This document shows positions 700 to 62,008 of a stretch of 64,000 nucleotides of DNA, piece by piece. This DNA is from Zootoca vivipara (lineage: Eukaryota). The stretch is from NCBI RefSeq assembly GCF_963506605.1, contig NC_083277.1:5766001-5830000 (forward strand), in the 5' to 3' direction. The notes beneath the pieces were generated by a model. The model had not been told where the DNA came from and ran no database searches. It worked only from the letters and a program-made list of their open reading frames with translations. Positions within the stretch are counted from its first letter, which is position 1. Every line of letters begins with the position of its first letter. The position numbers were made by a program, and so were the translations under genes.

Positions 700-917
700 A
701 AAGAAAAAGAAAAGGGGAGGGGAGGTTCCCGCCGCTCGGCTCCGCAAGGGTTAAGCTGAGCCACAGAGCTGAGATTCCTAGAGCGGAAGGAGAGCCGTCG
801 CCAGAGGAGGAGCTTCCGCTTCCTGTCCCGGGTTCTTCCTTCCTGTGGGAGGTGCCGGGGTGGCGAGGGCATGCGGCTGCTTTGCTTGGAGGATCTTCTC
901 CCGTTCTTTCTCCGCAG
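700..917 (+). promoter_or_regulatory. G1 GC-rich promoter / probable non-coding exon 1
   Basis: CpG-containing; ETS-like CTTCCGCTTCCTGT; donor CAG|gtaatg at 917/918; paralogous to 9350-9590. Confidence 0.5.
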
Positions 918-1769
918 GTAATGCAGCCTATCCTCCTGCCGCTTCCAGGTCCGATGCGGGGAAGGAAGGAGGGCGGGAGAGACCGAGGGAGGTGGAAAGA
1001 GCTGGGACTCCCATAGGGCAGAAGAGGAGCCTCCTGGGAGGACGAAGGCGAGGCGGGCCCCGCGCAGCTCAACCCGAGAGAGAGAAAAAGGTTTTTTAAT
1101 AGAGAAAGAAGAAGGCCCTGCTCCTCTGCAAAATATCTGTTACTTTTAGTTTGTTTTCCAAATTTCTAAACTGCTTTATAAAAAAAAGTATCCCAAGTGG
1201 ATTAAAATAAACAGGGAAGGCAGCTAAAAATCCACAGAACCACGTGGAGACCAATATGCCTAAAGCCATCATTTTAAAAAACAAAGATAGCTAAATATTA
1301 AATACTTCTACCGCCACCATTCTGTGCTTTATCCTCCCTCTCTGTTTGCCTTTTGTGAAATAGGCTGGGAAGATTTACACAAGTTAGAATTTGGGGCTGT
1401 CGGGCAGAGAGTATGGGGAGGGATTAAAAGGAATTCCTAAGGCGTGGGTAACCCTTTCAGGCTTCTCTCTCTGTCTCACTTTTCCAAGTGTTAAATTTAG
1501 TTACCCAGACGTTTTATTAAAGGAAAAGCCCTTATAAAAAAGAAAGAATTTCCATAGGCTGCTCCTTATTTCTCCCTCTTTTTCCACATTTCTGCAAAAT
1601 GCATTTACTGGTCTGTTGATGTATTTAAAATAAATCTCACTCAACACTCTTTAGCCTCTCAGGTCCCGTTTGGTCACCACACTCTTGTTCCGTTTGGGCA
1701 ATTAGGAACTTCCTTTTCATTGTTTTCATGAGTTCTTAGGCCACCATCTTTCATTTCATAGGCTGTGCA

Positions 1770-4700
1770 ATGGCAAAGGACAAACCCTGTGCATCCTCCT
1801 TACGATGCCCTGGAGAGGAAGCGATCACCATGCGTCCAGTTCAGGTAGGAGAAAGATCATTGGGGAGAGATTTGGGGGATCGCTGGAATGTGTCCTTGTA
1901 ACAGAGGGACCTTGTTGCAGGGGCCTGACTCTTAACGTTGTGCTTCTGAAGCTGCTGCCTCTAAGGAAGTGGGCTGGCTCCACTGGGTTTTGTGAATGAA
2001 ACTGTAAACATAACCTAAGGAAAGCCTAGCTGGTGGATCAGGCCATTAGCCCACCTAGTCCAGCATCCTATTCCAACAGATGCCTAACTAGATGCGTGTG
2101 GGAAATTTGCAACCAGGAGCTGAACGCAACAGCAGTGAGGAGTATACTGCCCTTAACGAGTGGAGGCAGTGCTCAGCGATCGTGGCTGGTAGTCGGTCAT
2201 AACCTTATCTACTATGAATTTGTCCAATTCTCTTTTAATTTGGCAGCCGTTTCTGCATGTTGTTGTAGTGAATTGCAGAGTTTAATGGTGTGAAGACGTC
2301 CTTTCTGTTGTTTGTCCTTAATCTGCCTACATTTAACTTAATTGAACGGTCCTGGACTTCAGTATCACCCTAGAGGAAGAAATACCTTCCTCTAGCCTGT
2401 TTCTCCACACCATGCTATTATATTCCTTCTTTAGCCCCTTTGCTGTAAATTAGAAAAATCCTCATAGAGGAGTTTCTGAAATTGGAATCTTCTTTAAGAA
2501 CTAATGGGTAGATGCCATTTGCATTTGTTTATTTTCTAAACACCAAAGGTAAAGAAACCCACACTTGCTCATTGTCCAATTGGATTGGAGGGTACATTGT
2601 TTCCGCCCCCTTCCCTGAAGTATATATGAGGAAGGGAATTGTTTTCTTCTAGGGATTGATTAACATTGAGGAGGTCTCCTTCAGTGTTACTGACGAGGAA
2701 TGGGCCCTGCTGGATCCAGGACAGAGAACTCTGTGTGAGGAGGTCATGCTGGAGATTCATGAGATGGTGGTATCTGTGGGTAAGGATGCTTTTTTATTTT
2801 CTGAATTTAGGAGGGGGAGAAGAGTGGGCTGCCACTTGGATGAGGACATTTTGTGAATAGACTCACTGAGGGGTTCCAGCTCAAGTATTCCTGACAGGTG
2901 GCCCAGACTTCTGTTTAAAAATCTCCAATAATGGAGAGTTCACCACAGTATGAGTGAGGTGAATAGCTGTTTCCAGGGCCTTTGGAATTGTAGGACAGTG
3001 AGGTCCAGGCCCAGAACAAGAACTCCCATCATCCTCTCTGTCCACCAGCCATTGTTGCCAGGGCTGATGGGAGGCCCAAATATTTCAGTCGCTATGGCAG
3101 AACAGTAGGCTGCCCATTTGAGGAGGAGGGTTTTCTGTAGATGATGCAATATAAAAGAAGGAGACACAAGTAACTTCAGGTCCACAATAAACTCCAATGT
3201 GGCATAAATACAGACAGGTATTTATAAAAATGCAGCATTTCATTAGCTTTCCTCTTAATCCACCAGGAGATGTTTGGGGGATCCAGACTGAGAGGGAACC
3301 ATCAGAAGTGGCACCTGAAAGTGCTGAGGAGCAGGAGGAGCAACGAAAACTGCAGGTTCAAGTTGGAACCAGGAGACAAGAGGGGAGAGAAATTCAGAAG
3401 GCAGGGAGAGATTCCACTGCTTCTCAGGTTAATGGAAACCAAATCACCAAAGGGGAGAAAAAGTATAAATGTAAAGTGTGTGGAAAGAGATATCCTTCTC
3501 GCTCAAGGCTTACTTCACATCAAAGAGAGCACTCGGGTGAAAAACCATATGAATGCCAGGAGTATGGAAAAAGCTTCATTCACAATGAGTCCCTCGCTAA
3601 GCAGGGAAGCACTCATATGGGGGACAAGCCTTATAAATGTTTGGAGTGTGGAAAGAGCTTCAATAAAAGTGGAGAGCTCACTTCCCATCAAAGAATTCAT
3701 ACAGGGGAGAAACCTTATGAATGCTTGGAGTGTGGAAAGAACTTTAGGCACAATGCATCCTTCCTTAAGCATCAAAGAATTCATACAGGGGAGAAACCTT
3801 ATGAATGTTTGGAGTGTGGAAAGAGCTTCAGTCGCACAGACTCCCTTACTTTGCATCAAAGAAGTCACACAGGAGAAAAACCTTACAAGTGTTTGGAATG
3901 TGGAAAGAGCTTCATTAAGAGTAGCCACCTCACAAGACATAAAAGAACTCATACAGGGGGGAAACCTTATAGATGCTGCAAGTGTGGAAAGAGCTTCAGA
4001 CAACGTGACTATCTCACTGCCCATCAAAGAACTCATACAGGAGGGAAACCTTTCAAGTGTTTGAAATGTGGAAAGAACTTCAGTTGCACAGACTCCTTTA
4101 CTTTGCATCAAAGAACTAATGCATGCAGAAAGCCTTATAAATGTCTGGAATGTGGACAGAACTTCAATAGGAGAGGCCAGCTCACTAGACATGAAAGAAC
4201 TCATACAGGGGAGAAACCTTATAGATGCTGGGAGTGTGGAAAGAGCTTCATTGACAGTAGCTCTCTCACCTCTCATCAAAGAATTCATACAGGGGAGAAA
4301 CCTTATAAATGTTTCGAGTGTGGAAAGAGCTTCCTTCGGAGTGACTCTCTCACTATGCATCAAAGAATTCATACAGGAGAAAAACCTTACAAGTGTTTGG
4401 AGTGCGGAAAGACCTTCATTCGCAGTAGCAACCTCACAAGACATAAAAGAACTCACACAGGGGGTAAGCCTTATAGATGCTGCGAGTGTGGAAAGAGGTT
4501 TAGTGACAGTGACACTCTTACGAAACATAAAAGAACTCACACAGCGGGAAAAACTTTTAAGTGTTTGAAGTGTGGAAAGAACTTCGGTAGCAAAGACTCC
4601 CTTACTTTGCATCAAAGAACTCATGCAGGTAGAAAGCCTTATAAATGTCTGAAATGTGGAAAGAACTTCAATCGGAGTGGCCAGCTCACTATACATGAAA

Positions 4701-61500: not shown

Positions 61501-61764
61501 ACCCCCTCCCGCCACCTACGCGTCTAAGAGAGGAGTTAGACTTCCCCTTTCTCTCCAAAAAGGGAAAATTCTCCCTCTCCCACCTGCTGCCCTTCCCAAT
61601 CCATCCCTCCAGTGTCGCCCCCTCCTCTCAATTTATTCATTTTTGGGGGGTCTTGTCATTTTCTGCACAAACACACCCACCCCTCCTTCCCTCCCTCCCT
61701 CCTGCTGAATCTCACCTGGCCTGCCTTCCTTTCGCTGGGATGCGGAGGGAGGCGAAGGCACCAT
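55502..61764 (-). CDS. G6: C2H2 zinc-finger protein, proposed complement(join(55502..57063,60271..60348,61716..61764)), ~562 aa, ~16 finger units (2-3 degenerate), KRAB skipped
   Basis: Intact finger ORF with acceptor ttttctgtgagcag at 57064-57066 (phase 1). Exon 60348-60271 (ctcccccacag|...CAG|gtaagg) and donor CAG|gtgaga at 61716. The phases sum to 1689 nt without stops. The finger exon is high confidence; the upstream exons are moderate. Confidence 0.75.
57352..57402. repeat. (AAT)n microsatellite (also (ATT)n 58372-58425)
   Basis: Direct trinucleotide repeats. Confidence 0.95.
57435..57565 (-). mobile_element. tRNA-Asn-like head + CR1-tail SINE fragment
   Basis: CTGTTAACCAGAAGGTTGGTGGTTCGAGCCC followed by a CR1-type tail. 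Confidence 0.5.
57660..57778 (-). pseudogene. Dead KRAB-A exon in the last intron of G6
   Basis: Translates [36 protein letters not shown]|gtaaag. Stops at 57736-57738 (W of EEW) and 57703-57705 (Y of ALY). No AG after the pyrimidine tract (tttcaacgg). Confidence 0.85.
58926..59167. mobile_element. Tigger/mariner-type MITE
   Basis: TA-cagt..accttggttc / gaaccaaggtaccactg termini. Confidence 0.7.
59535..60109 (+). mobile_element. 5'-truncated L1 in a G6 intron
   Basis: [58 protein letters not shown]. Confidence 0.85.
60540..61095. mobile_element. Cluster of CR1 3' fragments including a tRNA-Lys(CTT)-headed CR1-tailed SINE (60740-60866, -)
   Basis: [64 protein letters not shown] head. Confidence 0.75.
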
Positions 61765-62008
61765 TGTCTGGCAATTCCACCCTCTCTCCCACACATGGGG
61801 GAAACTTCCTGCCTCTCTAGGAACCACAGCTCAGTTCCTATGTTCTTTGGAGGACCGAGTTGGCAGGAGCTGCCCCCCCCCCAAAGAAATCACAGCTGCT
61901 TGAATTATTCTTTCTCTGTGTGTCTCTCTTACACACGGAGAGCAGACCCTCCAAGTGTCCCTATTTTCCAGGGACAGTCCCAGATTTTCAGGTTTCTGAT
62001 TTCTTTCC

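Follow-up and report, generated by a model that had tools for sequence, protein, structure and literature searches.

A two-box element in front of KRAB zinc-finger genes in the lizard Zootoca vivipara, and its apparent homology to a dispersed Harbinger-like repeat

Why should zinc-finger genes whose promoters cannot be aligned with each other keep the same short word at their 5' ends? The question is raised by a stretch of 64,000 nucleotides from Zootoca vivipara (RefSeq assembly GCF_963506605.1, contig NC_083277.1, positions 5,766,001 to 5,830,000; hereafter called the window), which contains six C2H2 zinc-finger genes, named G1 to G6, each with a copy of one 25-base motif. A sequence-only reading of the window had reported these copies and proposed either a regulatory element common to the genes, close to where transcription starts, or the relic of a coding exon. 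The 25-mer has six exact matches in the window, at the positions and on the strands given by that reading, while shuffled sequences give 0.01, and every copy lies upstream of a C2H2 array and in the sense orientation to it, as had been claimed. The flanks of 400/500 bases from three promoter groups (G1/2, G3–5 and G6) indeed align across groups only within the motif of about 30 bases. Identity within groups is 81% over 448 bases for G1 and G2, 90% for G3 compared with G4/G5, and 99% for G4 and G5; the six copies should therefore be counted as three independent cases. The answer developed below is that the 25-mer is one version of a two-box element, promoter-proximal, very probably functional, and homologous, on sequence comparison, to the middle of a dispersed repeat.

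The distribution of the motif was analyzed in one genome of 1.44 Gb, with reversed patterns as controls (contigs are numbered C1, C2 and so on). The exact 25-mer occurs 99 times, 97 of them in C2:0.39–17.4 Mb, and its reversed control does not occur; with two mismatches allowed there are 167 matches and 2 in the control. An iterated weight matrix applied to the upstream regions of KRAB loci revealed the general form of the element, GGGTTAA followed by a 16-base spacer and the core TTCCTAGAGAGG, of which the 25-mer is one version. This exact bipartite pattern has 179 matches in the genome and none in the reversed control. The two sets share 3 sites among those listed, which gives 275 distinct sites. 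The 152 listed of the 179 bipartite sites are on C1, C2, C3, C4, C6, C10, C12 and C13, at least eight contigs, so the general form is not specific to one cluster. That reading had named an equal frequency away from zinc-finger 5' ends as the outcome that would speak against it; among the 152 listed sites, seven are outside zinc-finger context (three copies of the repeat described below and four unassigned), the gene-by-gene check having covered part of the sites within cluster intervals. The outlying sites at C1:15.6 kb, C3:120.2, C6:13.2, C10:71.0 and C12:59.1 Mb precede SCAN, KRAB or C2H2 exons, and 16 of 20 motif-anchored loci have a sense zinc-finger gene downstream. The best 150 KRAB exons are located on C2, C4, C13, C12 and C6. 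In 80 loci chosen solely by the KRAB exon (60 of the 79 on C2 and 20 of the 71 elsewhere), each with 9.7 kb of upstream sequence, a sense element is present in 46. Four of the six opposite-strand elements that were checked face their own head-to-head zinc-finger gene, and 12 of 20 antisense near-matches are the ends of KRAB exons.

Several individual sites are worth noticing. At C2:6.444 Mb (L066:7787-7849), there is a back-to-back pair of elements, separated by about 60 bases, in which each element points to a zinc-finger gene of its own. Tandem elements in units of 83–126 bases are found at C1:15.6 kb (three or more) and at C4:96.67, 96.72, 96.77 and 100.71 Mb. No zinc-finger exon was found within 9–28 kb of the elements at C4:1.32, C4:70.59, C12:21.07, C1:2.89 and C3:91.2 Mb; the first two are paralogous to each other, with upstream flanks of the zinc-finger type, and such elements may be orphan promoters or may have been donated to other genes. 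At C2:4.54 Mb, an element with no downstream zinc-finger gene lies opposite a frame resembling a receptor, presumably a vomeronasal receptor of type 2. In 12 loci (L036-L039, L042, L043, L046, L050, L052-L054, L071) 11 bases of the promoter core have their complement in the KRAB exon end with its donor (...VASLG|GT). Transcripts starting upstream could pair with it, but the complementarity is probably a coincidence, because the core is mostly untranscribed and G1 and G3–G5 do not have that exon end. A metagenome scan gave no matches, which says nothing on other species, and a search for DUF3669, by which old amniote genes were to give an age for the element, found no match and is uninformative.

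The two boxes are held at a fixed distance and vary less than what surrounds them. When 104 sites were anchored by GGGTTAA only, 26 had a core with at most 4 mismatches at spacer 16, and 16 of these were perfect; any other spacer from 8 to 27 was found in at most 3 sites. In the 26 sites, the core is 94% identical, and the spacer columns range from 35 to 88%. The flanks of 105 sites, compared after masking of the element, form 21 clusters, one of which is a false hit (a KRAB exon end), leaving 104 genuine sites in 20 clusters. Most cluster representatives keep the 16-base spacer, with unrelated letters in it. The upstream box depends on the family: G3-type genes have GGGTCA-like or GGGCCA letters 9–11 bases before the core, the G1/G2 spacer is 20 and G6 has no box. 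As the upstream box is changed or lost in the G3-type genes and G6, and the spacer widened in G1/G2, the core is the constant part. Among paralogs the element is more conserved than its flanks, and it is very probably functional. Read as the peptide ELRFLER(K/Q), the 26 sites have third-position conservation of 0.92, 0.96, 0.85 and 1.0 against a mean of 0.94 for first and second positions, so the mostly synonymous variation noticed in the six copies was an effect of the small sample. The distance from GAG(C/T)T to TTCC is 3 in 29 sites and 4 in 33.

The position of the element points to the transcription start. CpG and GC content peak around it, and sense splice donors peak 100–200 bases after it (0.32 and 0.21 per 50-base bin compared with about 0.03), with no antisense peak. 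The first donor had been placed 120–170 nt downstream of the motif in the window genes, where candidate donors were scored with a weight matrix; this is true for G1 (GT 143 bases from the core start) and roughly for G6 (108), and fails for G2, whose best donor is at +235, and for G3–G5, with only weak candidates within 400 bases (score ≤4.9). In G1, two RNA runs each give 1–2 sense reads in bins 824–985 and none in 662–823. More reads are available for one family, represented by a member on C4, for which three raw RNA runs (about 6% of each) were used, with paralogs pooled at 85% identity and 176 reads placed. Read depth is sense, rises at 2530–2545 and ends at the predicted donor, where reads are spliced; seven molecules start at 2529, and most of the pooled reads begin about 55 bases past the core. 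The core is at 2462–2473, GGGTTAA at 2439–2445, and between the core and the read pile-up there is a pyrimidine-rich word with A at 2520, which we take to be initiator-like. In this family, the element spans roughly −80 to −47 of the likely main start, as judged from read starts, not cap sites. TATA boxes are A/T boxes located some 30 bases upstream of the start; GGGTTAA, 80–90 bases before the pile-up at 2529, was rejected as one. By the read positions of this one family, the element is promoter-proximal and non-coding. Distribution, donor peak and read starts agree with the earlier suggestion of a shared regulatory element near the start of zinc-finger genes.

Where might such an element come from? 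Three AT-rich outlying bipartite sites share their flanks, and a search with the downstream sequence only gave 19 further matches (67–82% identical, on 11 contigs), several of which carry the motif at the expected place. Their alignment yields a repeat of about 560–580 bases with sharp ends, imperfectly inverted over about 12–13 bases. The motif pattern with the boxes 14 bases apart, as in the repeat, was found 32 times, never in zinc-finger clusters, and 24 of the 25 new loci are homologous to the repeat in their flanks when the motif is masked. Among ten copies with both ends, three have an exact 3-base duplication (TTA, TTG, TGT), compared with 8 of 485 cross-pairs, and none has a duplication of 4, 8 or 9 bases; the flanks are T-rich, not strictly TTA/TAA. 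An LTR (long terminal repeat)/Gypsy or piggyBac origin was dropped in view of the inverted ends, the 3-base duplications and the zero of ten at 4 bases. PIF/Harbinger transposons have ends of 14–25 bases and duplicate TTA/TAA targets (PMC3014272). The repeat resembles their non-autonomous elements, as these are described in PMC3014272 and PMC8437027, in its short inverted ends, 3-base duplication (TTA seen), dispersal and the absence of visible coding capacity. It differs from the description in PMC3014272 in that its ends are shorter and imperfect and its duplications also include TTG and TGT. It can be classified, as an imperfect fit, as an old, dispersed, Harbinger-like miniature inverted-repeat transposable element (MITE). 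In 17 copies found by the downstream sequence, the core, often deleted, is 80% identical where present (72/90) and the neighboring sequence 80–85%, with no sign of selection on the core.

The promoter element and the repeat share a block in which 33 of 41 columns are identical (z 6.1), and promoters match the repeat profile solely at positions about 244–282 of 560; in the window, the best match of the profile is at 9398–9447, at G2 (E 0.043). By this comparison, the promoter element is homologous to the middle of the repeat. The sequence-only reading had regarded membership in a common transposable-element fragment as a refutation. As that objection foresaw, a dispersed transposon contains a segment homologous to the motif, but only this segment is present and conserved at zinc-finger genes, which argues for co-option rather than an artefact.

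On this basis, the following chain of events is proposed. One copy of the repeat would have inserted at an ancestral SCAN/KRAB gene, and this founder insertion would have lost all but about 41 bases and gained 2 bases of spacer. The founder element would then have been copied with each gene duplication, and purifying selection for protein binding would have retained both boxes. The element would thereby likely serve as a directional docking site for a putative activator, with the start set some 50 bases downstream. The chain starts from the distribution, orientation and fixed spacing of the element, its conservation next to unalignable flanks, its homology to the repeat and the unselected decay of the dispersed copies, together with the position of the element in one family, where most exon-1 reads lie downstream. 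To these we add, as suppositions, the direction of transfer, a single origin, the binding of a protein and an activating effect. Taken as a whole, a repeat fragment turned into a directional activator site and spread by duplication seems to us evenly poised between right and wrong.

Several results weigh against it. Four of the 20 motif-anchored loci have no sense zinc-finger gene in the 8–28 kb examined. By a fixed rule, the element is absent from 34 of the 80 KRAB loci, 33 of which have a CpG-rich patch; it is thus dispensable for many genes. In G3–G5, the CpG peak is 400–800 bases downstream of the motif. In one run of the C4 family, about 12 reads cross the element, 5 of them starting at 2426, upstream of it; moreover, starts of RNA-seq reads are not cap sites, and indels between paralogs may clip reads near 2529. 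At the level of the consensus, the promoter flanks beyond the 41-base block show no homology with the repeat sequence (z −0.1 and −1.2), and forward-only hints of such homology are weak. Relics of repeat ends are not in excess at promoters: an apparent excess of the 3' transposon end (13/105 compared with 1 in the reversed control) disappeared against the real background of 52/578. The repeat's 14-base spacer is found at no KRAB-anchored site within 3 mismatches. Since the flanks show no homology to the repeat, capture by the transposon fits too.

Such a capture is the alternative that survives best, and we consider it unlikely but worth serious attention: the functional promoter element would be older host sequence, copied by a transposon out of a zinc-finger promoter and later decayed in the dispersed copies. 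It would explain why promoters show no other part of the repeat, though dispersed copies align over hundreds of bases, and why the selected spacer of 16 differs from the 14 of the repeat; it would also be unparsimonious to suppose that a transposon acquired both selected boxes by chance. However, a single founder insertion trimmed once would likewise leave no flanks. About 115 bases farther upstream, the repeat has another GGGTTAA-like box, so that the word looks native there, and the block has AT-rich surroundings in the repeat, with none of the GC-rich flanks of the promoters.

Somewhat less likely than capture is a feedback site, at which a KRAB protein raised against the transposon binds the promoter relics and damps the expression of its own family. 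C2H2 arrays with many fingers are suited to long gapped words, and the element is such a word. There is also a precedent, since human KRAB proteins are reported to recognize a motif that transposons and promoters have in common (PMC10653712). However, the strict orientation and position of the element, including in the back-to-back pair, are more readily explained by a directional promoter element; a preference for spacer 14 would be expected of a repressor that arose against the repeat, and the dispersed copies are not conserved.

It is very improbable that the block was kept solely by recent duplication or gene conversion and has no function. This neutral inheritance would be consistent with the 80 of 105 sampled elements that fall in one flank cluster by single linkage, with many families being 90% identical, and with long motifs shared through paralogy at human KRAB promoters (PMC8415372). 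However, both boxes and their 16-base distance are kept where the flanks and the spacer have diverged past alignment, and gene conversion would homogenize the spacer too.

Slightly more doubtful again is the explanation that a known factor binds a variant of its site here, either BCL6/STAT (TTCCTAGAA), suggested by the sequence-only reading, or ZNF143/THAP11 (ACTACA-N-TTCCCA). The core matches the BCL6 motif TTCCTAGAAAGC at 10 of 12 bases (PMC4387288), and the layout GA(A/G)CT-N4-TTCC(C/T)AGA is similar to that of SBS2, a site with enrichment at zinc-finger genes in humans (PMC3627581). The BCL6/STAT identity (TTC-N3-GAA, A at the ninth base) was abandoned: the ninth base of the lizard core is G in 22 of 26 sites, C in 2, A in 1 and T in 1, and the lizard element, unlike the motif given in PMC4387288, has an extra box at a fixed distance. 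The ZNF143 sites (TTCCCA...ATGC in SBS1/SBS2, with ACTACA upstream in SBS2) were also rejected: the fifth core base is T in 24 of 26 sites, and neither ACTACA nor ATGC is present at the element. Neither factor accounts for GGGTTAA at 16 bases. Finally, descent from an ancestral coding exon reading ELRFLER(K/Q) can practically be dismissed, because, despite five arginine codons at one position among the exact 25-mers and the fewest stops in that frame (29/104), one-base indels that break the frame flank the core on both sides, third positions show no excess of change, reads mostly start downstream and leave the core mostly uncovered, and the source is a non-coding repeat. Rfam gave no matches in five loci at the gathering score.

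In the window itself, the forward strand carries G1 to G5. G1 has GGGTTAA at 748–754, 20 bases from the core compared with the genome-wide mode of 16; its 25-mer is at 766–790, with the core at 775–786, one mismatch from TTCCTAGAGAGG. A likely non-coding exon 1 occupies 824–917 (donor GT at 918), its start bounded by the read bin only. The KRAB exon (2653–2781; Pfam KRAB 4e-14) is spliced from an ATG exon ending at 1844, a GT..AG joint supported by 4 reads of one RNA run, and the array reading frame is at 3191–5317. A fragment of a short interspersed nuclear element upstream of G1 (536–601) attracts thousands of reads from other genomic places. G2 has the box at 9400–9406 (spacer 20), the 25-mer at 9418–9442 (core 9427–9438), a KRAB exon at 12308–12412 (Pfam 1e-17) and a short array frame at 13969–15114. 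For G3, the 25-mer is at 20942–20966 (core 20951–20962), with GGGCCAG (20934–20940) in place of the upstream box, and the array at 23595–25760. The G3-type family (20900–23600 and relatives) is large and supplies most of the 99 exact 25-mers; its genes have a possible donor overlapping the first bases of the motif and, upstream of it, a CATTCATT-like word, presumably ZNF24-like. G4 and G5 have their 25-mers at 32694–32718 (core 32703–32714) and 42588–42612 (core 42597–42608), and their arrays at 35448–38117 and 45338–48007. Their promoters (32300–33200 and 42200–43100), 9.9 kb apart, are 99.4% identical, which suggests that they were duplicated in tandem very recently or that a haplotype was left uncollapsed. 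A pattern search of the window found no KRAB exon for G3–G5. On the minus strand, G6 has the 25-mer at 61808–61832 (core 61812–61823) without an upstream box, a strong donor GT near 61716 and the array at 55502–57067; a KRAB-like stretch with stops, judged by eye, is at 57630–57800 (minus). A reverse-transcriptase frame of a long interspersed nuclear element (62025–64000, minus), presumably of the RTE/BovB type, ends about 200 bases upstream of the G6 motif.

The element was not found described in the literature searched, which did not include subscription journals, supplements or repeat databases, and the repeat may already be named in Dfam/Repbase or in supplements. Its closest counterparts are partial. 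The ZNF143/THAP11 SBS2 site, for which derivation from MLT1J elements was proposed (PMC3627581), is likewise a composite promoter-proximal word, loosely similar in layout, enriched at zinc-finger genes and, by that proposal, derived from a transposon. By the account in PMC3627581, it differs in having TTCCCA instead of TTCCTA, whereas the lizard element has a fixed orientation and a second box 16 bases away, probably derives from a DNA transposon rather than an LTR element and is apparently almost confined to zinc-finger genes. In Xenopus, MITEs of Harbinger, hAT and Kolobok type were co-opted as liver enhancers (PMC12676858), so that in both cases MITE sequence became regulatory in a non-mammalian vertebrate; the Xenopus report concerns many independent insertions acting as distal enhancers, and the lizard case one promoter fragment apparently multiplied by gene duplication. 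Endogenous retroviruses (ERVs) drive the expression of human KRAB zinc-finger genes (PMC7577720), which likewise ties transposon-derived sequence to the coordinated expression of the KRAB family; that report deals with intact nearby ERV enhancers in tumors, in contrast to a conserved 41-base relic at each promoter. The core-promoter modules of human KRAB genes (PMC8415372) are similar in that a gene family shares promoter motifs through duplication. They consist of long paralogous similarity in a few dozen genes, with no transposon link given in the parts of that report at hand, whereas the lizard element consists of two short boxes across unalignable promoters.

Which protein could read the element? 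The ends of Harbingers are bound by a Myb/trihelix protein that these transposons themselves encode and that was repeatedly domesticated, ZSCAN20 being a putative case (PMC9392472), and the plant trihelix GT-1 binds GGTTAA (PMC4267404). The genome has at least 25 Myb/trihelix (PF13837) domains, 11 of them inside the C2 zinc-finger cluster (3.886–3.896, 7.64, 7.69, 8.06, 8.40, 13.67, 17.64, 18.25 and 18.36 Mb). One of these, at C2:7.638 Mb, is encoded on the same strand as an exact element located 5 kb upstream of it. As a lead only, a Harbinger-derived Myb/trihelix domain may be considered a candidate reader of the upstream box. A bolder and improbable extension would be that an internal protein-binding site of a Harbinger gave rise to the promoter from which the squamate SCAN/KRAB zinc-finger radiation started, and that a domesticated Harbinger Myb/trihelix protein activates the whole family together, some of these proteins being encoded in the clusters. 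If this were true, the genes that silence transposons would themselves depend on a binding site and a protein taken over from a transposon.

It is an open question, studied almost solely in mammals, by what means KRAB zinc-finger genes that number in the hundreds and duplicate rapidly are kept in coordinated expression. In the lizard, one element with sharp limits accompanies more than half of the KRAB genes sampled and occurs on several chromosomes; it offers a direct handle on the factor involved. In practice, it marks the starts of zinc-finger genes in poorly annotated reptile genomes. The SCAN domain has a known retrotransposon origin (PMC3971581); the element described here suggests that all its carriers descend from one founder promoter, tied to a DNA transposon.

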